Source: Planctomycetota bacterium
GTDB taxonomy: Bacteria > Planctomycetota > UBA1135 > UBA2386
Reading direction: 5' to 3'
Assembly: GCA_046290465.1 (NCBI GenBank)
Contig: JBKAGP010000001.1
Span: 6,432,001-6,496,000, forward strand
Length of the DNA: 64,000 nt
Both the position numbers and the translations under genes were made by a program. The notes under the pieces were generated by a model. It worked only from the letters and a program-made list of their open reading frames with translations, searched no databases and was not told where the DNA came from. Shown here one piece after another: positions 36,555-53,223 of the stretch (position 1 is the first letter of the stretch; each line of letters opens with the position of its first letter).

Positions 36555-37676
36555 ATGGATTTCCCCGCCTGGGACCCGGTCCTGTTCGACATCCCGTACC
36601 TGCCGATCGCGATCCGCTGGTACGGCCTGATGTACGTGGTCGGCTTCCTGTGCGCGCAGTGGATCTTCGTGCGGCTGGCCCGGCGCGGCTTCTTCCCGGT
36701 GCCGCCCGAGAGCGCGCCGGACCTGATCTTCTACTGCGTGTTCGGCGTCATGCTCGGCGGCCGCACCGGCTATGCGCTGTTCTACGACCAGTCGCTGCTC
36801 AATCCGCTGGAGTTCCTGCAGGTGTGGAAGGGCGGGCTGGCGTTCCACGGCGGTCTCGCCGGCGTCTGCGTGGCGATCTGGCTGTTCTGCCGGCGCCACG
36901 GGATCGGCTGGGCGCGCGTCGCCGACGCCACCGCGCTGGGCGTCTGCCCGGGCATCTTCGCGGTGCGCTTCGCGAACTTCATCAACGGCGAGCTGTACGG
37001 GCGCAAGACCGAGCCGGACACCTGGGGCGCGATGCAGTTCCCGACCGATCCGGCGGCGTTGCGCGAGATGGGGCTGTCGGCGCCGGGGCTGACGATGCGC
37101 GACCGCGAGCTCGGCATCCAGGTCGCCTACGGCAAGCTCGACTTCGCCGACGTCGAGGCGGACCTCAGCAAGGTCGACGAGCTCGGCCGGCCGATCGACT
37201 GGAGCCGGATCGAGCCGAGGCTCGACTGGGAGGCCGTGCGCGATCGCATGGGGCCCGACGGCCTCGAGCACGTGGTGCCGTTCCGGCATCCGTCGCAGCT
37301 CTACGAGGGCATCTGCGAGGGCCTGCTGGTCGGCATCGCGCTGTGGATCCTCTACTCGCTGACGCGCAGCCGGCCGCTGCGCACCGGCCGCTACGCCGCG
37401 GTGTTCCTGCTCGGGTATGCGGTCGCGCGGTTCTGCCTCGAGTACGTGCGCAAGCCGGACGAGCAATTCTACGAAGGGGCCAACGACGGCACCGTGCTGT
37501 TCGGCATGACGATGGGGCAGACGCTGACGCTGGGCATGGTGATCGGGGCGCTGCTGATCCTGTGCTGGCCGCGCAAGCCGGAGGCCCCGTCGGGCCAGCA
37601 GGCTGGCGGTGGCCCGGATGGTGGCCCGGATGGTGGATCTGGGGGCGGCGACCCGCCCGCGGCAGCGAACGGCTAG
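36555..37676 (+). CDS. lgt: Prolipoprotein diacylglyceryl transferase
   Basis: IRWYGLMY, GGRTGYALFY, WKGGLAFHGG, RFANFINGELYGR and RHPSQLYE motifs. Confidence 0.95.
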   Translation: MDFPAWDPVLFDIPYLPIAIRWYGLMYVVGFLCAQWIFVRLARRGFFPVPPESAPDLIFYCVFGVMLGGRTGYALFYDQSLLNPLEFLQVWKGGLAFHGGLAGVCVAIWLFCRRHGIGWARVADATALGVCPGIFAVRFANFINGELYGRKTEPDTWGAMQFPTDPAALREMGLSAPGLTMRDRELGIQVAYGKLDFADVEADLSKVDELGRPIDWSRIEPRLDWEAVRDRMGPDGLEHVVPFRHPSQLYEGICEGLLVGIALWILYSLTRSRPLRTGRYAAVFLLGYAVARFCLEYVRKPDEQFYEGANDGTVLFGMTMGQTLTLGMVIGALLILCWPRKPEAPSGQQAGGGPDGGPDGGSGGGDPPAAANG

Positions 37677-37782
37677 GGCGGCGGCGCCAATCGCAGCCCG
37701 GACTCTGGTTGCGGCCCCGGTCCGCGGGAATAATGGTGTTCGCTTCGGCGTCCCTGCCGGGCCGTCGAGGCATCCCAACCCT

Positions 37783-40677
37783 ATGTTGCGTAACCGTCTG
37801 CTGCTCCTTCTCGCGCTGTTGCTGCCGGCCGTGGCCTGCGACAACGTCGGCCGCGCCTTCGACCGCAACGTCGATCCCAACACGCCGGGCAACGAGACCG
37901 GCGAGTCGGAGATCCAGGTGGTCCCGGTCGGCGGCGACGCCCGCGACGGCCGGCCGCAGGTCCGCGAGGTCTACCCGCAGGGGTCGGGCTGGCCGACCAC
38001 GGTGCCGATCGTGGTCGAGTTCAGCGAGAGCATCAACGAGGCCTCGGTGCTGCCGACCTCGGCCAACGGCATCGACGGCCGCATCGGCGTGCGCGTGCAG
38101 GGCTCCACGCAGCTGCTGCCGGCGCAGTACGACTTCCTCGCCAACGGCAAACTGCTGATCATCCGGCCGCTCAACGGGCTGTCCAACGAGGGCCTGCCGA
38201 TCTACGAGATCGTGCTGTTCCCCGATGCGCGCGACGTCGACGGGGTGCGCTTCCAGGTCACCGGCGGTGAGACCGTGCTCGGCGACTTCCAGGTCAACCA
38301 GGGCGAGTCGATCGACGACGGCGCGATCGTCGCGGTGTTCCCGCGCGACAACTTCGGCGACCACCCGCGCGAGAACGACTTCTTCGTGATCTTCGACAAG
38401 CCGGCCAACGCCAGCACGCTCGACGCCGCCAACCTGTTCCTGCAGCCCGAGGGCGGCACGCCGATCACCACCGAGATCCGCACGCCGCTGGCGACGATCG
38501 GCGTCAACGACCCGCGCGTGGTGCAGATCGAGCCGAGCGCGACGCTGATGGCGTCGCAGCGCTACGAGTTCACCGTCACCGAGAACATCACGTTCGGCCA
38601 GACCGGCAACCTCGACTTCAACGGCCGCACGCCGTTCAGCGAGTTCGACACGGTGGCGCCGGCGCGGCCGACGCTGGTCGAGCTCGATTCGCCGCAGGCG
38701 GGCTTCCCCAACAAGATCAACGCCACCAACGTCGCGACCGTGCAGATCGCGGTGACGCCGCCGGCCGACGCGCTGCCGGGCGACACGGTGATCGCGCGCA
38801 TCTACGGCGGCGACGCCGAGACCACGCCGACGTTCGACGAGGCGTTCGTCGAACGCACCGGCACGGTCGTCACCGCGGGCACGCCGGTCGTGATCGACTT
38901 CTCCGGCACGCTCGGCACGGCCGCGTCGCCGCGGCTCGACGGCGGCGAGGTGACGTTCGCGGCGCAGCTGCAGCGCGGCAGCGAACGGTCGGGCTTCGCG
39001 CACAACGACGCCAACGCCGATCCGGAGTTCGACGTCACGCCGCCGACGCTGGTCTCGGCCGGTCCGCCCGGCACCGGCAACGACATCTACACCGACGGTG
39101 AGTGGCTGGCCTACTACGGCGTCGCCAGCGAAGAGCTGGCCGCCGCGACCATCGACGACGGCGTCAGCCCGACCGCCAACATCTTCGGCTCGAGTGCCGG
39201 CGGCCGCTTCCTGATGCTGCCGCTGCCGCTCGGTCGCCTGACCGCCAACCGCACCTACACGCTGACGCTGACCGACGCGTCGGGCAACACCAACGCGACC
39301 ACGTTCAGCGGCCAGGTCGTGCAGCAGGGCGTGCTGACCGGCGGTCTCGCCGGCACGCTGACGGTGGAGGTGTTCGACCACACGACGCTGCAGCCGGTGG
39401 CCGGCGCGACCGTGCTGGTCGACCCGGCGACGCCGGCGGTGCCCGCCACCGGCCAGCTGCTCGGCACCACCGACCAGGCCGGCACCGCGACGTTCACGAC
39501 CGGGCTGTCGTCGCACACGATCACGGTGATCCGGCCGGGCTACGACCTGATCACGATCGTCGACACGCAGGCGGCGAACGTCAGCCTGCCGCTGACGCCG
39601 ACCGCCGAGCCGACCGCGTCCTTGACCGGCAACCTGGCGTTCGAGCAGGCCGCCGGCCTGACGGCGATCGTCGGCAGCACCGCGGTCGCCGACCGCGATC
39701 CGATGGGCGTGCGCACGACCAATGCCTCGCCGACGGCGATCCCGGCGACGCCGATCACGCCGAACCGCGCGCAGATCCTGACCGCGTTCGGCGGCGGCTT
39801 CGAGCCGACCGCGACGCCGACCTACACGATCAGCGGCTGCCAGGTCTGTGGCGCGACCTTGACCGATCCGACCGCGCCGCCGGCGCCGGCCGAGGCCGGT
39901 GAGTCGTCGATCGCCAACTTCGTGCTGATCCCGGTGCCGCCGGTGGTCAGCCCCAACCCGCCGACCGACCCGACGCTGCTCGGGCCGCACATGGAGGACT
40001 TCGGTCTGGCCGCGGGCCTCGACACGTCCAACCTGGTCGGCGGCCTGCCGCGCGCGCGCACGACGATGTCGCTGCAGGGCTTCGTCGGCCAAGCGCTGAG
40101 CGGGGTCGGCGTGGTGACGCTGAACGCCGGCACCGTCTACGACGTCGACGCCAACTACTCGCTGCCGATCATCACCGGCCTGGCCGGCTACTCGCCGGTG
40201 TCGTGGCTGGTCAGCGAGGCCGAGGACACCAGCGGCAACGTCGCGCGCACCCGCGTGCTGCTCAACCCGGCGACCCAGACGATCATCACCGGCACCGGCC
40301 CGATCCCGATCCCGACGGTCACCGCCGGCACCTTCAGCAACCCGCCGGCGGTGACGTTCGTGGACGTCGTCGATGCGTCGACGGTGCTGACCGGCATCGG
40401 CTGCACCGACCTGACGATCACCGATCCGAACGGCCGCCGCTGGACCGTGCTGGTGACCGACCGCGACGACACCACCGGCACCAACGTCGTGCAGCTGCCC
40501 GACGTCGCCGCCTCGCCGAACGCGGGCCTCGCCGTCGGCGCGTGGTCGACCGTCGCCGAGTCGCGCGTGTTCGTGTCGATCACCGGCTCGACGACCGACG
40601 ACCTGGTGCTGACCGAACGGTTCCGCCAGGAGGTCAACTACTCGCGCTCGGCGGCGGCGACGCTGACCGTCAACTGA
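37783..40677 (+). CDS. Large surface lipoprotein with multiple Ig-like (Big) domains
   Basis: Lipobox AVAC; PIVVEFSESINEASV (Big_5-like), DTVAP/DVTPP linkers, Thr/Pro/Gly-rich beta domains. Confidence 0.75.
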   Translation: MLRNRLLLLLALLLPAVACDNVGRAFDRNVDPNTPGNETGESEIQVVPVGGDARDGRPQVREVYPQGSGWPTTVPIVVEFSESINEASVLPTSANGIDGRIGVRVQGSTQLLPAQYDFLANGKLLIIRPLNGLSNEGLPIYEIVLFPDARDVDGVRFQVTGGETVLGDFQVNQGESIDDGAIVAVFPRDNFGDHPRENDFFVIFDKPANASTLDAANLFLQPEGGTPITTEIRTPLATIGVNDPRVVQIEPSATLMASQRYEFTVTENITFGQTGNLDFNGRTPFSEFDTVAPARPTLVELDSPQAGFPNKINATNVATVQIAVTPPADALPGDTVIARIYGGDAETTPTFDEAFVERTGTVVTAGTPVVIDFSGTLGTAASPRLDGGEVTFAAQLQRGSERSGFAHNDANADPEFDVTPPTLVSAGPPGTGNDIYTDGEWLAYYGVASEELAAATIDDGVSPTANIFGSSAGGRFLMLPLPLGRLTANRTYTLTLTDASGNTNATTFSGQVVQQGVLTGGLAGTLTVEVFDHTTLQPVAGATVLVDPATPAVPATGQLLGTTDQAGTATFTTGLSSHTITVIRPGYDLITIVDTQAANVSLPLTPTAEPTASLTGNLAFEQAAGLTAIVGSTAVADRDPMGVRTTNASPTAIPATPITPNRAQILTAFGGGFEPTATPTYTISGCQVCGATLTDPTAPPAPAEAGESSIANFVLIPVPPVVSPNPPTDPTLLGPHMEDFGLAAGLDTSNLVGGLPRARTTMSLQGFVGQALSGVGVVTLNAGTVYDVDANYSLPIITGLAGYSPVSWLVSEAEDTSGNVARTRVLLNPATQTIITGTGPIPIPTVTAGTFSNPPAVTFVDVVDASTVLTGIGCTDLTITDPNGRRWTVLVTDRDDTTGTNVVQLPDVAASPNAGLAVGAWSTVAESRVFVSITGSTTDDLVLTERFRQEVNYSRSAAATLTVN

Positions 40678-45470: not shown

Positions 45471-46280
45471 ATGGAATCCGTCAACGAGATCAAGGAAGCG
45501 CTGTCGGCGCGTTCGCGCACCGCGACCCTCGACGAGCTCAAGAGCGAGGGGCGCAAGCGCGTTCGCCTGATCCGCGCCGAGCACGTCGCGCAGATGATCA
45601 GCGAGGCGGTGCATGCGGCGATCGAGCACTCGGGCCTGCTCGGCCAGGACGAGGTCGACTTGCTCATCGAGAAGAGCCGGACCGAGTTCAAGTCGATCCT
45701 GCGCGAGCGCGAGCAGGAGCTGCAGACGGCGCGTGAGAACGAGGAGCAGCTCGAGGCCAAGGAACACGAGCTGACCGAGCTGAAGTCGCGCTTCAGCGAG
45801 CTGACCCGTTCGCTCGCTTCGACCCGCGCCGAGCTCGAGCAGACCAGGAACGAACTCGAGGTCGCACGCGACCTGCCGGCGCCGGCTGCGCCCGAGGCGG
45901 CGGCGCAACCTGCACCGGCGGCGATGTCGCCCGACATGATGATGTCGATGATGCAGGAGCTGGCCAACCTCAAGGCCAGCATGGCGCATCAGCAGCAGCC
46001 GCAGGGCGCACAGCAGGAGCAGGCCGCGTCGCCGGACTTCTCGGCCGCGCTCGACAAGCTGGCCGGAACGCTCAACGACCGACTCGACAGCTTCGGCAAG
46101 AAGATGGGCATCAGCTCCGCCGTCGGCGGCGATGGCCCGGTCGACTTCGGCGCGATGTTCAAGGACGACGACGACAACAAGCTCGAGTCGAACATGGAGA
46201 ACATTCAGGTGAAGCAGAAGGCCGCCGGGGGGATCGCGGCCAACCTCGCGAAGCTGAAGAAACTGAAGGGCGGCGGCTGA
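45471..46280 (+). CDS. Cytoplasmic coiled-coil protein, probable partner of the downstream actin-like ATPase
   Basis: Long heptad region (REQELQT...ELEVAR), Met/Gln/Ala-rich linker and basic amphipathic C-terminus IAANLAKLKKLKGGG. Confidence 0.75.
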   Translation: MESVNEIKEALSARSRTATLDELKSEGRKRVRLIRAEHVAQMISEAVHAAIEHSGLLGQDEVDLLIEKSRTEFKSILREREQELQTARENEEQLEAKEHELTELKSRFSELTRSLASTRAELEQTRNELEVARDLPAPAAPEAAAQPAPAAMSPDMMMSMMQELANLKASMAHQQQPQGAQQEQAASPDFSAALDKLAGTLNDRLDSFGKKMGISSAVGGDGPVDFGAMFKDDDDNKLESNMENIQVKQKAAGGIAANLAKLKKLKGGG

Positions 46281-46336
46281 TCGCAGAGTCGCCGACGCGG
46301 ACACACAACCAACCGGGAAGAGAAGGCGGAAGAGCT

Positions 46337-47380
46337 ATGACTGAACAAGACGACATTGATCCGAACATCGATCAGGGCACCGAGACCGCGGTCGGCCTCG
46401 GCAAGGGCCTGGACGTGGGCACCGCGAACCTGGCGGCGGCCGTGCAGAACGACGAAGGCGGCATCACCGTCAACGTCGAGCGCAACGCGTTCCTGGACAT
46501 CCCGAGCGACGTTTACAGCAAGAACATGCTGACGAAGCTCAAGGTCCCGTACGTCGTGCACAACGGCAAGCTGGTCGTGATCGGCGAGGCGGCGTTCGAG
46601 CTGGCCAACGTCTTCGGCCGCGAGACCCGCCGCCCGATGGCGGACGGCCTGGTCAGCCCGAACGAGCAGGACGCGCTGCCGATGATGAAGATGATCATCC
46701 AGAAGATCCTGGGCGAGCCCCAGGAGCCGGGTGAGAACTGCTACTTCTGCGTGCCGGCCGAGTCGCTGGACGTCGACAACAACGTCGTCTACCACCAGGG
46801 CCTGTTCGAGAGCATGATCAGCAAGCTCGGCTACAAGGCCCACGCGATCAACGAAGCCCACGCGGTGATCTTCTCGGAACTGGCCGAGAACGACTTCACC
46901 GGCATCGGCCTCTCGTTCGGCGGCGGCATGGCCAACGCCTGCATCGCCTACAAGTCGATCCCGTGCCTGTCGTTCTCGGTGGCGCGCGGCGGCGACTGGA
47001 TCGACAAGAACGTGTCGAGCGTGCTGGGCGTCCCGCGCAGCAAGGCGACGGCGATCAAGGAGCGCGGCATCGACATCCGCGATCCCAAGAGCCGCGAGGA
47101 GGAGGCGGTCGCGATCTACTACCGCAGCCTGATCAACTACGTGCTCGAGAACATCAAGTCGCGCTTCGAGTCGGGCCAGAACATGCCCAGCTTCAACGAG
47201 CCGATCGACATCGCCTGCGCTGGCGGCACGTCGATGGTCGGCGGCTTCATCGAGGTCTTCCGCGAGGAGTTCGCGAAGATCGACTTCCCGATCCCGGTCG
47301 GTCGCATCTTCCGCAGCGAAGAGGCCCTGACGGCGGTGGCGAAGGGCTGCCTGGTCGCCGCGGCGATCGGCGAAGAGTAG
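46337..47380 (+). CDS. Actin-like ATPase resembling haloarchaeal volactin
   Basis: Actin-fold motifs: phosphate-1 GLDVGTAN, connect INEAHAV, phosphate-2 GLSFGGGMAN, ARGGDWID, adenosine AGGTS and C-terminal VAKGCL. Confidence 0.82.
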   Translation: MTEQDDIDPNIDQGTETAVGLGKGLDVGTANLAAAVQNDEGGITVNVERNAFLDIPSDVYSKNMLTKLKVPYVVHNGKLVVIGEAAFELANVFGRETRRPMADGLVSPNEQDALPMMKMIIQKILGEPQEPGENCYFCVPAESLDVDNNVVYHQGLFESMISKLGYKAHAINEAHAVIFSELAENDFTGIGLSFGGGMANACIAYKSIPCLSFSVARGGDWIDKNVSSVLGVPRSKATAIKERGIDIRDPKSREEEAVAIYYRSLINYVLENIKSRFESGQNMPSFNEPIDIACAGGTSMVGGFIEVFREEFAKIDFPIPVGRIFRSEEALTAVAKGCLVAAAIGEE

Positions 47381-47472: not shown

Positions 47473-47511
47473 AAGGGCGCGACGGGGCCGGGCGGTCCCG
47501 GTCGCGCCCTT
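47473..47511. terminator. GC-rich hairpin between convergent genes (possible terminator)
   Basis: 11-bp inverted repeat AAGGGCGCGAC...GTCGCGCCCTT; no clear U-tract. Confidence 0.35.
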
Positions 47512-47531: not shown

Positions 47532-50504
47532 TCAGAGCTTCAGCCGCACCCGCAGCCAGCTGCTGATCTCGCGCTCCTCGGGCAGCACCGGGTCGAACGA
47601 GAACGCGGCGACGTACAGGTCGAGCCCGGCGAGGAACGGGATCGGCGGCACGAAGAGCTTGGGGGCGGCGCTGGCTGCGCCGTCCAGCGTGCCGCCGAAG
47701 TCCTGGAACACCGGACTCGGGATCAGGCTCGCCTGCAGGATGCCGCCGTCGCGCAGCGGCAGCACGCCGCCGAGCGGCAGCGTGATCGGCGGGTCGATCG
47801 CTTCGCTCAGCGCACAGACGAACGGCATGCCGGCCTCGCCCGGCAGCCGCAGGTCGAACGTCGCCTGCTGGCCCATGGTCACGTCGGTCGCGCCGCCGAG
47901 CCGCTGGCCGTCGAGCAGGAACGCCATCGTCTGCTGCAGCAGCTGCGCGCGCACGTCGTCGTCGAGCAGCGTCTCGAGCGGCACGCCGAGCACGCAGATG
48001 CGCGCACCGGAGCCCGGCTGCACCGTTTGCACACCGGCGCCCAGTCCGTTGCCGTAGCGCAGGCAGGTCGCGCCGTTGGCGGTGGTCGGCACCAGTACGT
48101 CCGGGAAGTCGACGTCGTAGGTCGGGCCGCTGCCGTCGTCGAACGCGGTCGCCGCGACGCCTTCGCTGACGGTGCCGGGGACGCCTGCCTGCAGCGTGTA
48201 GGTGCCGGCGTCGTCGGCGACGTAGGTCGCGCCGAGCGTGTTGCGGAAGAAGGTGCGGTCGCCGGCCGAGCCGAGCCAGTCGAGGTCCCAGCCGACCTCG
48301 GCACCGGTCACCAGCAGCGCGCCGCCGCCGTTGAGGTAGAGCGTCAGCGCGAACTGCTCGACGGTGTCGAGCGTCTCGTCGTCGGTGCTCTCCTCGCCGA
48401 GGCTCCAGACCACCGCGTCGTAGTCGTTGAGCGCGACCCTTCCGAGCTTGACGGCCTCGTTGCTGGCGGCGTCGAAGCCGAGCGAGAAGCGGGCGTCGCG
48501 GCGCAGCGCGGAGCCGAAGCGCGCCAGGTAGTCGCGCGTGTTCTCCGGGCCCTTGACGGTGCGGCCGAGGCGGTCGAAGCCCTGCACCAGCAGCGCCTGC
48601 GCGGTCGCCAGGTGGTCGGTGCCGGCGGTCAGCACCTCGGTCGGGAACGACCGGCCGGTCTGGTTCCACGCCCGCACCCGGAACGAACGGCTGCTGTGGT
48701 GCGGCAGCGGGCCGGTCGACCACGACAGCGTCGTGACGTTGGCGACCTCGACGAAGCCCTTGCCGTCGAGCGACTGCTCGACCGTGTAGAAGGTCGCGCC
48801 GGGGGCGGTGTCCCACGCGACCTGCAGGCCGCGGTTGCCGTCCTGGGTGACGCGCAGCGCCGTCGGCGGCTCGGGCGGGAACGGCGCCAGCGGCGCGAAG
48901 TAGCGCAGCACGCCGCGGGCGTAGGCGCGCGCCGCCAGGTAGCGGAACTCCGGCTCGTGCAGCGAGTCGTGGTCCAGGGAGCCGGGCGTGTCGTGGAACG
49001 CCATCTCGACCAGGATCCCGGGCATGCTGCTCAGCAGCCGCAGTTCGCCGAAGTTGGCCTGCTGCTGGCCGCGGTCGACCCAGCTCGGGTTCCACTCGTT
49101 GCGCAGGTCGTTGATGATCTGCGTGTGCACGGCGTTGCTCAGCGCCGCGGAACCGGCGGTCGCGCCGCCCGAGTAGGTGAACGTGTCGGTGCCGCTGCCA
49201 CCGCCGGCGTTGGTGTGCAGCGACACGAACGCGTCGGCGGTGCGCCACTCGGCGAACCGCGGCCGCGCGGTGACGTCGTCGCTGTTGTCCTGGCCGCCGG
49301 CGACCGAGTTGTAGACCGACGCCGGCGCGCCGGCGAACTGCGCCCAGTAGCGCGCGCACTCGCGCCAGCGTTCCTGCAGCGACGTCGTGCCGCCGCGCAC
49401 GATCGAACCTAGGCCGCCGCCGAGCCGCACCGCGTCGGCGATCACGACGCCCGGGCTCGGCGAGCGGTCGCTGAGCGTGACCGTCGCGCCCTGCTGCGCG
49501 GTGAACCAGTAGTTGCCGAGGTGGGCCCAGGTCAGGTTGTCGACGGTCTGGTCGACCGTGACCTCGTCGACGCCGCCGCTGTGCTGCACCCGGTAGATGG
49601 CCTCCGGGGTGCGGTTGCCGCTGGCGCGGAACCACGCGAACACCGGGTAGAGGCCGTCCTCGGCGACCGGGATCTGCCAGGTCGCCGTGGCGGTCTCGAC
49701 GGTGGGGTTGCTGCTGGCGAAGCGGTAGGTCGAGTTCTGGTAGCCCGACGACGCCGACGTGCTCCAGCCGCCGGTCTCGGTGTAGGCCGGCGCGCCCTGG
49801 TCGTTGTCGGCCAGCCCGTCGACCGCGCGTTCGCCGGGTTCGCGGCAGAACACGACGTCGGCGCCCATGTTCTGCAAGAACGGGATCAGGTAGCGGTTGG
49901 CGATCTGGGCGGTGTGGATGTCCTCGATCAGGCCGCCGATGTTGCCGCGCTGGGTGGTCCAGCCGAGCGACGAGTGCCAGTAGTAGCCGTGGCCGGGCGA
50001 CACCGCGATGCGCTTGCCGGCGAGCGAGCCGAACGAGGCGACCAGTGACGCACCCGGCTGCGCCTGGCCCTGGCCCGGCTGCGGCAGCGGCGGTCGGCCG
50101 AGCGCCTCGCCGAGTTCGACGACCGAGCCGTCGTCGCGCTGCACGTGGATCTCGCAGCGGGACACGCCGGCGGCGGCGAGCACGGTCTTGTCGATCTGTT
50201 CGACCGCGTGCTCGCGCTCACAGCCGGGGGCCGCGCGCAACAGGTCGCTGCTGAACGTGACGCGCACGGTCGCGCCGGTGTGGCGGCAGGCGACCAGCCG
50301 GGTGCCGCGCGGCAGGTGGCTGCGCAGGCCCTGGGCCGCCTGGGCCGCGTCGGGACCGGCGCACAGCTGCCGCATCGCGGCTGCGACATCGGTGTGCAGC
50401 GGCGGCACGGCGCAGAGGTTGCGGTCGCGGAAGAACAGCACGTTCTGGGCGGTCAGGCACGTCGACGTGGCGAGCGTCGCGGCGAGCAGCGGAAGGAGGT
50501 GCAT
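47532..50504 (-). CDS. Secreted multidomain N-acetylmuramoyl-L-alanine amidase (Amidase_3) with CBM-like insert, FN3 and shared C-terminal domain
   Basis: IAVSPGHG..E, FVSLHTNA and GILVEMAFHD zinc motifs; VIADAVRLGGG (golvesin/xanthan-lyase-type CBM); FN3 (SFRVRAWNQTGRSFPTE). Confidence 0.85.
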   Translation of the reverse strand: MHLLPLLAATLATSTCLTAQNVLFFRDRNLCAVPPLHTDVAAAMRQLCAGPDAAQAAQGLRSHLPRGTRLVACRHTGATVRVTFSSDLLRAAPGCEREHAVEQIDKTVLAAAGVSRCEIHVQRDDGSVVELGEALGRPPLPQPGQGQAQPGASLVASFGSLAGKRIAVSPGHGYYWHSSLGWTTQRGNIGGLIEDIHTAQIANRYLIPFLQNMGADVVFCREPGERAVDGLADNDQGAPAYTETGGWSTSASSGYQNSTYRFASSNPTVETATATWQIPVAEDGLYPVFAWFRASGNRTPEAIYRVQHSGGVDEVTVDQTVDNLTWAHLGNYWFTAQQGATVTLSDRSPSPGVVIADAVRLGGGLGSIVRGGTTSLQERWRECARYWAQFAGAPASVYNSVAGGQDNSDDVTARPRFAEWRTADAFVSLHTNAGGGSGTDTFTYSGGATAGSAALSNAVHTQIINDLRNEWNPSWVDRGQQQANFGELRLLSSMPGILVEMAFHDTPGSLDHDSLHEPEFRYLAARAYARGVLRYFAPLAPFPPEPPTALRVTQDGNRGLQVAWDTAPGATFYTVEQSLDGKGFVEVANVTTLSWSTGPLPHHSSRSFRVRAWNQTGRSFPTEVLTAGTDHLATAQALLVQGFDRLGRTVKGPENTRDYLARFGSALRRDARFSLGFDAASNEAVKLGRVALNDYDAVVWSLGEESTDDETLDTVEQFALTLYLNGGGALLVTGAEVGWDLDWLGSAGDRTFFRNTLGATYVADDAGTYTLQAGVPGTVSEGVAATAFDDGSGPTYDVDFPDVLVPTTANGATCLRYGNGLGAGVQTVQPGSGARICVLGVPLETLLDDDVRAQLLQQTMAFLLDGQRLGGATDVTMGQQATFDLRLPGEAGMPFVCALSEAIDPPITLPLGGVLPLRDGGILQASLIPSPVFQDFGGTLDGAASAAPKLFVPPIPFLAGLDLYVAAFSFDPVLPEEREISSWLRVRLKL

Positions 50505-51684: not shown

Positions 51685-53223
51685 ATGCCTCGCCTCGCTG
51701 CCCGCCGGCTTCTTGCGGTGTCATTGCCTTCGGTGTCATTGCCTTCGGTGCCATTGCCTGCGGTGCCGTTCGCAGCGGTACCGTTCGCCGCGGCGCTGGT
51801 CGTCGGTCCGCTCACGGGCCAGCTGCCGCAATTCGTGCTCGATACCCCGCCGGCGATCCTGGCGCAGCAGTTCGACAACGTCAGCTGCGTCGACGTCGAC
51901 GGCGATGCGGACCTGGACCTGTTCGCCTACAGCAGCTTCGGCCTCGGCGGTGGCAGCATCCGGCTGCTGCGCAACGACGGCGGCAACGTCTTCACCGACG
52001 TCTCCGCGTCGCTGCCGATGCTCGGCAACGGCGCCACCGGCGTCAGCTGGTTCGACGCCGACGGCGACGGCGACCTCGACGCGTTCCTGACCGTCGTCTC
52101 CGCGCCGAGCATCGTGTTGCGCAACGTCGGCGGCGGGGCGTTCGTGATCGGCGCGCAGCTCGCCGGGGCGAGCGGCCAGACCGGCAGCGCCGTCGCCGAC
52201 TTCGACGGCGACGGCGACCTGGACGTCGCGGTGTCGGGCTCGGCGCTGATCAGTTCGCGCGACCGCGTGCTGCTCAACGACGGCACCGGGCAGTTCCCGA
52301 CCGAGGTGTTCCTCGGCGTGCCGCTCAGCAGCACGGTCGTCGCCGGCGACCTCGACCTCGACGGCGACGCCGACCTGGTCTACATCGACGCCGGCGCGGG
52401 GCTGCGCGTGCTGCGCAACGACGGCGCCAACGTGTTCACCGACGTCAGCGCGACCCAGGCGGTGATGCTGCCGGGCTCGGTGCCGTCGACCGGTGTCGGG
52501 CTCGACCTCGAGGGCGACGGCGACCTCGACCTGGTGCTGCGCGGTGGCTACCAGGGCAGCGACACTTTCGTGCGCAACGTCGGCGGCGTGCTGACCGAGA
52601 TCGGGCCGCTGCCCGGGCCGAGCAACAGCAGCTACCTCGCGGTCGGCGATGTCGACGGCGACGGCGCTCCGGACGTCGTGCGCGCGCTGCTGCCGTCCGG
52701 GATCGCGCTGTCGCGCAACGACGGCGTCGGCGGCTTCGTCGACGGCGCGGCGCGCATGCCGCCGCAGGTGATCTACTCGTGGGCGGTCGCGCTCGGCGAC
52801 CTCGACGGCGACGGCGACGAGGACCTCGTCAGCTGCCTGAGTGGCGCGGCGACCCTGGTGCTGCGCAACCGGGACGTCGACCTGCAGGTCGACGCCGCGG
52901 CGATCGGCCAGCCGTGGACGTGCCGGCTGCGATCGCGCCCGGGCTACGCGACCGGCGCCCAGCCGATGCGGCTGGCGGTCTCCCTGGCGCGGCTGCCGCA
53001 GGCCGTGACGCTGCCGGCCATCGGCCAGCTCTGGCTCGACCTGACCGCACCGCACGCGCTGTTCGACCAGGTCGCGCCGCCGGTCGACGGCACCGCGGTG
53101 TTCTCGCTGTCGATCCCGAACGATCCGGCGCTGGTCGGGGTGACCCTGCACGTGCAGGGACTGGTCGCGCGCGCGCCGGGACCGCCGCGGCTGACCGCGT
53201 GGCTCCCGGTGACGATCCAGTAG
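51685..53223 (+). CDS. Secreted FG-GAP/VCBS-repeat (beta-propeller) protein with shared C-terminal domain
   Basis: Seven D-x-DGDGDLD-type repeats; signal region expanded by 15-bp repeats; start uncertain. Confidence 0.85.
   Translation: MPRLAARRLLAVSLPSVSLPSVPLPAVPFAAVPFAAALVVGPLTGQLPQFVLDTPPAILAQQFDNVSCVDVDGDADLDLFAYSSFGLGGGSIRLLRNDGGNVFTDVSASLPMLGNGATGVSWFDADGDGDLDAFLTVVSAPSIVLRNVGGGAFVIGAQLAGASGQTGSAVADFDGDGDLDVAVSGSALISSRDRVLLNDGTGQFPTEVFLGVPLSSTVVAGDLDLDGDADLVYIDAGAGLRVLRNDGANVFTDVSATQAVMLPGSVPSTGVGLDLEGDGDLDLVLRGGYQGSDTFVRNVGGVLTEIGPLPGPSNSSYLAVGDVDGDGAPDVVRALLPSGIALSRNDGVGGFVDGAARMPPQVIYSWAVALGDLDGDGDEDLVSCLSGAATLVLRNRDVDLQVDAAAIGQPWTCRLRSRPGYATGAQPMRLAVSLARLPQAVTLPAIGQLWLDLTAPHALFDQVAPPVDGTAVFSLSIPNDPALVGVTLHVQGLVARAPGPPRLTAWLPVTIQ

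Follow-up and report, generated by a model that had tools for sequence, protein, structure and literature searches.

The two genes described here lie in a window of 64,000 nucleotides (positions 6,432,001 to 6,496,000 of the forward strand of contig JBKAGP010000001.1, assembly GCA_046290465.1) from a Planctomycetota bacterium whose genome is a 6.59-Mb single contig of 70% GC; coordinates are those of the window unless stated otherwise. Two open reading frames (ORFs), both on the + strand and separated by 56 bp, were confirmed where a preliminary description, made from the sequence alone, had placed a two-gene unit with products of 269 and 347 amino acids. Gene A (45471..46280) is predicted to encode a soluble putative adaptor of 269 amino acids with the C-terminal end IAANLAKLKKLKGGG, and gene B (46337..47380) a 347-amino-acid actin-like ATPase of the volactin/Mad28 family (PF25216) with an acidic, disordered N-terminus (residues 1-19). 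The G+C content at third codon positions is 0.92 for A and 0.95 for B. Protein A consists of a previously undescribed N-terminal domain (residues 12-84; 45504..45722, +), a long helix predicted to form a coiled coil (residues 59-134; 45645..45872, +), a variable linker, further helices and a conserved C-terminal motif (residues 226-266; 46146..46268, +) with the elements LF, ESN, V-x-K and G-I-x-x-x-L-x-K/R-L-K-x-L, of which residues 238-266 are predicted to dock on B.

Protein B scored 278.7 bits against the PF25216 Volactin profile (cut-off 35), matching profile positions 3-321 of 321, and fell below the cut-offs for MreB (MreB_Mbl, 19.7 versus 27 bits; NCBIfam mreB, 14.2 versus 365.75 bits), FtsA (22.9 versus 31.8 bits; NCBIfam ftsA, 14.5 versus 175.85 bits) and MamK (NF040964, 13.8 versus 400 bits). 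The actin-fold ATP-binding motifs claimed for it were located at residues 24 (GLDVGT), 171 (INEAHAV), 193 (SFGGGM) and 295 (AGGTS), and the AlphaFold2 model has an actin fold (predicted local distance difference test score, pLDDT, 89.9; predicted template modelling score, pTM, 0.87). The best structural matches of this model were BeeR (Z 26.9, root-mean-square deviation 3.5, 306 residues aligned) and MreB (Z 25.2, deviation 3.4, 282 aligned), at 16-20% identity, while ParM was no nearer (Z 18-21); in a sequence search against solved structures there was no match below E 0.05. In a tree of 46 sequences the volactin/Mad28 family formed one clade against MreB, MamK-like proteins and DnaK (Shimodaira-Hasegawa-like approximate likelihood ratio test 96.9; 0.87 in a separate FastTree tree), with the haloarchaeal and Mad28-like members together (98.4) and B in a separate, planctomycete-rich clade; this tree was a fast search on representatives picked by the authors from the 158 sequences of the FastTree set, and its poorly resolved backbone shows no donor. 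Profile scores and trees ruled out B as an MreB, FtsA, PilM or Hsp70 protein, and profile searches and tree bore out its earlier placement with volactin rather than with MreB, FtsA, MamK or ParM.

VolA (HVO_2015) of Haloferax volcanii has in common with B the PF25216 match, the same motif variants and a partner gene directly upstream; in the comparison, syntenic haloarchaeal members scoring up to 447 bits stood in for the Haloferax sequence. Three haloarchaeal plasmid proteins were 39-40% identical to B, one of which scored 447 bits on PF25216, and all three follow a gene for a DUF7139 protein, which is the HVO_2016/HVO_2015 arrangement (PMC12126565). Haloferax volactin forms dynamic filaments whose tips are membrane-bound (PMC10869688). 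Unlike VolA, B is bacterial and lies in a separate clade, A is a soluble coiled-coil protein with an unrelated N-terminal domain instead of a DUF7139 membrane protein, and no S-layer disk-shape context is present here. As B lies outside the haloarchaeal clade and A has neither a DUF7139 domain nor a transmembrane segment, B was not taken as a strict-sense orthologue of VolA.

The PF25216 family of B also includes Mad28 of deep-branching magnetotactic bacteria. Members matching the motifs of Fig. S9B of PMC12713370 formed a clade among the PF25216 hits; within it, proteins encoded next to mamK and feoB, or next to genes for HEAT and coiled-coil proteins, scored 268-279 bits; the identity of B to Mad28-type proteins was 31-37%. 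B carries the motif variants of the family, namely Ser in phosphate 2 and no Pro after the connect-1 Glu, and the same variants have been described for Mad28 (PMC10653835). Polymerisation of Mad28 has been demonstrated both in vitro and in E. coli, and Mad28 and MamK cross-interact (PMC10653835); bacterial members are thus already known to polymerise, and in bacteria the family is not uncharacterised, as had largely been supposed. Mad28 also co-occurs with a MamK-type actin and binds the coiled-coil protein Mad25 (PMC10653835, PMC12713370, PMC12748827), and it has an N-terminal extension with an amphipathic helix where that of B is short and acidic. A strict assignment of B to Mad28 was likewise rejected, the clade being different and the scanned neighbours unrelated. 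B is a member of the PF25216 volactin family without being an orthologue, in the strict sense, of either VolA or Mad28. No magnetosome genes were found among the scanned neighbours of B or of the MamK-like gene of this genome; a genome-wide magnetochrome search matched no control, and so gives no sign that magnetosome genes are absent. MinD-like genes were seen to follow Mad28-type genes at two loci (L289 and L298).

Scans of Pfam, NCBIfam and PHROGs with A gave no family over the cut-off (PHROGs had no family for B or for the phage partners described below either), atlas searches returned only scores below 0.9 and template modelling scores below 0.4, and no transmembrane segment was predicted (best 19-residue hydropathy 0.8). 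The AlphaFold2 monomer of A had a pTM of 0.40, within which the long helix was modelled at pLDDT 85-98; this helix is probably a dimerisation stalk, and A would accordingly be a dimer. Gene A was found directly upstream of B in 79 of 80 GTDB loci, while the contig of the 80th starts inside B, without upstream DNA; the pairing of A and B is not due to chance. Among 87 aligned sequences the tail was strongly conserved at N241 (87/87), L259 (86/87), E239 (85/87) and L265 (81/87), and the motif was kept down to 52% identity of B. A profile of the tail, built from Planctomycetota sequences only, matched at 106 of 111 Planctomycetota loci, each time at most 500 nt upstream of the actin gene; of the five misses, one was a truncated contig, two were divergent members, and in two the locus was centred on a second copy in tandem. 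The neighbourhood survey therefore agrees with the preliminary description, in that both the partner gene and its KLKKL-type tail are conserved beside homologues of B.

The motif was also sought beyond the Planctomycetota. In 43 viral loci it was clear in two (E 3e-13 at 2.3 kb upstream; E 3e-6 adjoining) and marginal in a few, and many had an unrelated small partner instead; the five phage loci searched first gave no significant match to the profile. In haloarchaeal partners of the HVO_2016 type a weakly similar motif occurs in two copies near the C-terminus. Tail alignments with hhalign were weak (4.7% to the haloarchaeal partners, 19.6% to the phage partners), and a homology of the tail across domains of life is suggested by sequence only weakly, as a lead and not a result.

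The complex of B with residues 205-269 of A was modelled at an interaction score (ipSAE, from aligned errors) of 0.66 (runs of 0.68, 0.66 and 0.66), compared to 0.00 for the best of three controls; 116 of 157 solved pairs attained the mark used, as did 2 of 215 mismatched ones, and this mark is roughly applicable here, the alignments having been supplied by the authors. At least 81% of contacts were common to the runs. In the model, I255, N258, L259 and L262 of A touch B at residues 179-187, 206-207 and 336-344, residues 249-250 of A pair with the strand at B45-47, and the ESN element touches subdomain IB. The contacted segments of B are presumably the groove between subdomains IA and IIA, as judged from actin numbering and the secondary structure of the model. 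This groove is the binding site of WH2, arcadin-2 and ParR (PMC5173319), and the tail of A is predicted to dock in that of B.

The preliminary description had offered A as a nucleator, an adaptor or a membrane anchor acting through its tail, and the complex model favours the adaptor. A membrane-targeting tail, as in MinD or FtsA, would be basic and amphipathic, and residues 238-269 are indeed lysine-rich, with a net charge of +4 and hydrophobic residues 3-4 apart; CorR, moreover, anchors CorM to the membrane by an amphipathic helix (10.1101/2025.06.27.661541). In CorR, however, it is the N-terminal helix that is the membrane one, the C-terminal helix binding the actin. The tail of A did not pass the 0.75 hydrophobic-moment filter, its near-invariant E239 and N241 suggest a specific protein contact, and the haloarchaeal partners carry a similar motif despite already having, in DUF7139, a membrane domain, along with a separate helix at the C-terminus. 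Because the model places the hydrophobic face of the tail (I255, L259 and L262) inside the actin groove, anchoring of B to the membrane through it was considered very unlikely.

The host genome encodes, besides B, a true MreB, a PilM-like protein and a MamK-like saltatorellin. The last of these scored 414 bits on MamK and its C-terminus matches the translated saltatorellin reverse primer (10.1101/817700); the published primer matched none of 111 genomes of the class. This orthologue is a different gene, 21% identical to B, and B is thereby ruled out as saltatorellin. For the cultured Saltatorellus strains, the available passages of the same paper report only MreB and saltatorellin, and no partner. 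Saltatorellin is preceded by a gene paralogous to A. With a hidden Markov model of A homologues it ranked second of 69,547 six-frame ORFs of the genome (E 0.0085), and an hhalign comparison of the N-terminal domain of A with it gave 91% (E 1e-6, 96 columns). This paralogue was directly upstream of saltatorellin in 30 of 30 fetched loci, was found in 54 of 61 relatives, and ends in a different conserved tail. Here it forms part of a three-gene unit on the - strand (G000:C1:1706431-1709118; loci L113 and L308), the remaining gene of which encodes a 256-amino-acid BY-kinase/MinD-like P-loop protein; in another planctomycete a volactin is fused to Wzz and such a P-loop domain (P0258).

A combined profile of the N-terminal domain matched exactly two places in the host genome. 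Among the 301 Planctomycetota genomes sampled it matched in 124, every one of which encodes a core volactin or a MamK-like actin, and none of 163 genomes with neither has the domain, which was present in 87 of 89 core-volactin genomes and 100 of 112 MamK-like genomes; these counts are from lists copied by hand and from related genomes that are not independent. Of 20 loci with the domain that were picked away from the listed volactin genes, 12 had it directly upstream of a MamK-like gene, three were A-type, three were saltatorellin-type without an adjacent actin gene and two were other. In eight of the 150 best family representatives (and partially in a ninth) the domain is fused to a full-length volactin, and of five fusion clusters examined, two contain several members of full length; the tail was absent from all 150, fusions included. 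The fusions lend the docking of the tail on B support that is independent of the complex model. The N-terminal domain of A is common to the putative adaptors of both actins.

The layout of A, with a C-terminal docking helix, resembles that of ParR, and a ParMR-like system positioning DNA or the nucleoid, in which the N-terminal domain would bind DNA, was considered. Other members of the family have N-termini resembling the helix-turn-helix (HTH) of ParB (P0249 over the cut-off; P0246, P0250 and P0256 under it) or HU (P0342), and the family is common in large phages. Yet a ribbon-helix-helix match was obtained in only 1 of 59 members of the N-terminal domain (E 0.012), residues 1-84 of A carry a net charge of -3, and there was no parC-like repeat array near the genes. 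Approximately 2.3 Mb separate the locus from dnaA, from parB/parS and from the GC-skew minimum, the genome already possesses a parB of its own together with a parS-like site, and plasmid matches to the family were limited to 5 of 72,556 records, all of them haloarchaeal megaplasmids. A role in DNA positioning is distinctly unlikely on these grounds, and a ParMRC-like one is disfavoured.

A could also regulate polymerisation, its tail capping or sequestering monomers of B through the groove as arcadin-2 does on crenactin or thymosin beta-4 on actin. The predicted groove site is the same, A is soluble, and the helix by which arcadin-2 depolymerises crenactin is a conserved C-terminal one that follows a variable linker (PMC5173319). 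A pure sequesterer would need no conserved N-terminal domain, however, whereas that of A recurs in the saltatorellin adaptor and is fused to volactin, and the haloarchaeal genes next to volactin encode DUF7139 membrane proteins, in line with an anchoring function; this alternative was judged unlikely. ParMR(C), CorMR and crenactin-arcadin-2 all pair an actin with an adaptor whose C-terminal helix binds the actin groove, which in the present pair is modelled, but no sequence homology to them, no ribbon-helix-helix and no centromere were found here.

PF25216 was matched over the cut-off in 110 of the 301 sampled Planctomycetota genomes, 89 of which were counted as core volactin, leaving out 16 genomes of one family whose volactins are divergent and five other weak or divergent matches. 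Within the host class it was present in 35/35 genomes of the host family and 13/13 of five other families, compared to 1/56, 0/5 and 0/1 in three more. This distribution bears on the suggestion that the pair belongs to an FtsZ-independent division machinery. There was no match to FtsZ/tubulin in the host genome (94% complete; 13 of 14 controls matched), the gene is present throughout the host family, and the neighbour of the haloarchaeal gene is CdpA-like (PMC12126565). All but one of 56 genomes of one family of the same class nevertheless lack the gene, as do all five of another and 191/301 of the phylum, and Haloferax volactin assembles independently of the division site (PMC10869688). The tie to division drawn in the preliminary description found no support as a general role; a part in that machinery is very improbable, and a universal division role is disfavoured.

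Searches with the PF25216 profile gave 494 clusters at 50% identity (E up to 1e-30), as well as matches in two huge phage records and in 3 + 38 viral-contig loci. In one planctomycete family (f7; loci L082 and L091; 16/16 genomes, mostly high-quality) a divergent subfamily with altered catalytic motifs was observed, two examined members of which were 22-23% identical to B, and no N-terminal domain of the A type was found in those genomes; in another (f55) volactin is encoded by an unusually long reading frame. Other Planctomycetota carry second volactin copies in tandem, extended at the N-terminus by helical or ParB-HTH-like segments, or proteins that contain two volactin domains (L100, L101 and L103; P0241, P0242, P0244, P0246, P0249, P0250 and P0256). 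Nineteen of the best 150 representatives are interrupted by an intein-like insertion, which falls at various positions around the phosphate-2 motif (P0257, P0290, P0291, P0293, P0294, P0304, P0309, P0320, P0339, P0341, P0348, P0356 and others), and the 12 scanned show intein/homing-endonuclease matches. A second class of phage partner (L124, L210-L215, L220, L223, L227, L228, L231, L232 and L234-L240) comprises proteins of 73-98 amino acids encoded directly upstream of volactin, with a beta-rich N-terminus and a C-terminal W-x-I/V-P-D-F...F-G-K motif. On three viral contigs (L117-L119) volactin lies among small genes upstream of bS21, a scaffold-like gene and the Gp23 major capsid gene, and a protein of 101-103 amino acids with a hydrophobic N-terminus and a tail-like end is encoded a few genes upstream of it. 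MamK-like genes were present in 112 of the 301 Planctomycetota genomes (76 over the MamK cut-off; families f2, f14, f24 and f62), which suggests that, in Planctomycetota, magnetotaxis is poorly indicated by a MamK match on its own.

Taken together, the reading to which a probability of roughly 0.62 was assigned is that B is an ATP-binding actin of the volactin/Mad28 family and A its dedicated adaptor. B would form dynamic filaments, as judged from volactin in vivo and Mad28 in vitro. The C-terminal motif of A would lie along B as an extended strand and then as a helix in the IA/IIA groove, the filament-end site of ParR, arcadin-2 and WH2; with its coiled coil probably dimerising, A could hold or nucleate filament ends, and its N-terminal domain would attach the filament to a cellular structure. 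The same domain, with a different tail, heads the saltatorellin adaptor, and both actins are probably tied to a common anchor. They may position internal or envelope structures in the manner of MamK and Mad28 in deep-branching magnetotactic bacteria, where MamK with Mad28 and the coiled-coil Mad25 is the nearest precedent (PMC12748827).

Several observations weigh against this reading. In the complex model the pLDDT of the A partner is about 56-60, the residues of B at the predicted interface show no higher conservation than the remainder of the protein (0.80 versus 0.80), and the model may have passed by likeness to solved groove-binding peptides; binding in the groove would also fit a depolymeriser such as arcadin-2. 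In two families A-type genes with a recognisable tail do not adjoin an actin gene (L193 of genome G158 and L200 of G028), and none of 65 Mad28-type loci contains the tail or the N-terminal domain of A. The tail profile ranked the CdpA-like upstream genes of two of the three haloarchaeal loci first and second of 665 ORFs, at E values of only 0.05 and 0.07. In some of the fusion proteins the ATP motifs are degenerate, and these proteins may be paralogues with a specialised role. Finally, there was no consistent Pfam or PDB match to the N-terminal domain, and, A having no transmembrane segment and this domain no matched fold or ligand, an anchor target is not pointed to.

The flanks that were scanned encode a TonB-dependent receptor, a rhomboid protein, a convergent amidase and an immunoglobulin (Ig)-domain protein. 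Because their conservation is restricted to closer relatives (amidase in 38, folP in 30 and the TonB receptor in 16 of 80 loci), the flanking genes were not counted in the module. The amidase gene (47532-50504, -) encodes a secreted-looking protein of 990 amino acids with Amidase_3 and Golvesin_C domains; between it and B is a 15-bp inverted repeat (47473..47511), a possible terminator that was not flagged in the terminator scan, the promoter and terminator scans being without useful output. A 1022-amino-acid lipoprotein-like Ig-domain protein (Big_5) is encoded at 37609-40677 (+), and a 512-amino-acid protein in which FG-GAP-like repeats were read from the sequence at 51685-53223 (+). Contigs from RNA libraries of relatives cover A and B in 4 of 4 runs, two of them bridging the gap; the runs were chosen by this stretch and such contigs cannot show transcription or co-transcription. 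Named relatives are mostly labelled Planctomycetota, one of them (CL500-15) at 89% identity, in keeping with the planctomycete host proposed at the outset, and the host is inferred to be a relative of the Saltatorellus (OM190) clade. One genome labelled Luminiphilus contains the pair at 95% identity on a contig with planctomycete-type neighbours (L005), which is probably a binning contaminant.

What is known already is the volactin/Mad28 family with its polymerising bacterial members; what is new is the tail adaptor A and the N-terminal domain that it shares with the saltatorellin-upstream gene. In the titles and abstract openings found there was no description of a planctomycete volactin, of this adaptor or of the shared domain, and Wiegand et al. 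2020 and preprint supplements may list these among planctomycetal actin homologues. A wider and tentative possibility is that deep-branching, non-magnetotactic Planctomycetota have a modular two-actin cytoskeleton, in which one anchor domain, coiled coils and interchangeable tails would select a volactin/Mad28 or a MamK-type filament on a common structure. The docking tail might then be an ancient, reversed-WH2-like motif, present also in HVO_2016-type haloarchaeal membrane proteins, as the missing tip anchor of Haloferax volactin, and in some large phages, and such a system could be the ancestor of magnetosome MamK and Mad28. The word 'volactin' does not occur in PMC12748827, nor 'Haloferax' in the main text of PMC12713370, and the finding joins the volactin and Mad28 literatures, which do not cite each other's protein in the papers searched. 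Planctomycetes of this lineage are without FtsZ, their cultured relatives shape-shift and move amoeba-like, and their cytoskeleton is almost uncharted; B is a third actin named in such a cell, and A and its paralogue are the first candidate adaptors for a volactin-family actin and for saltatorellin.

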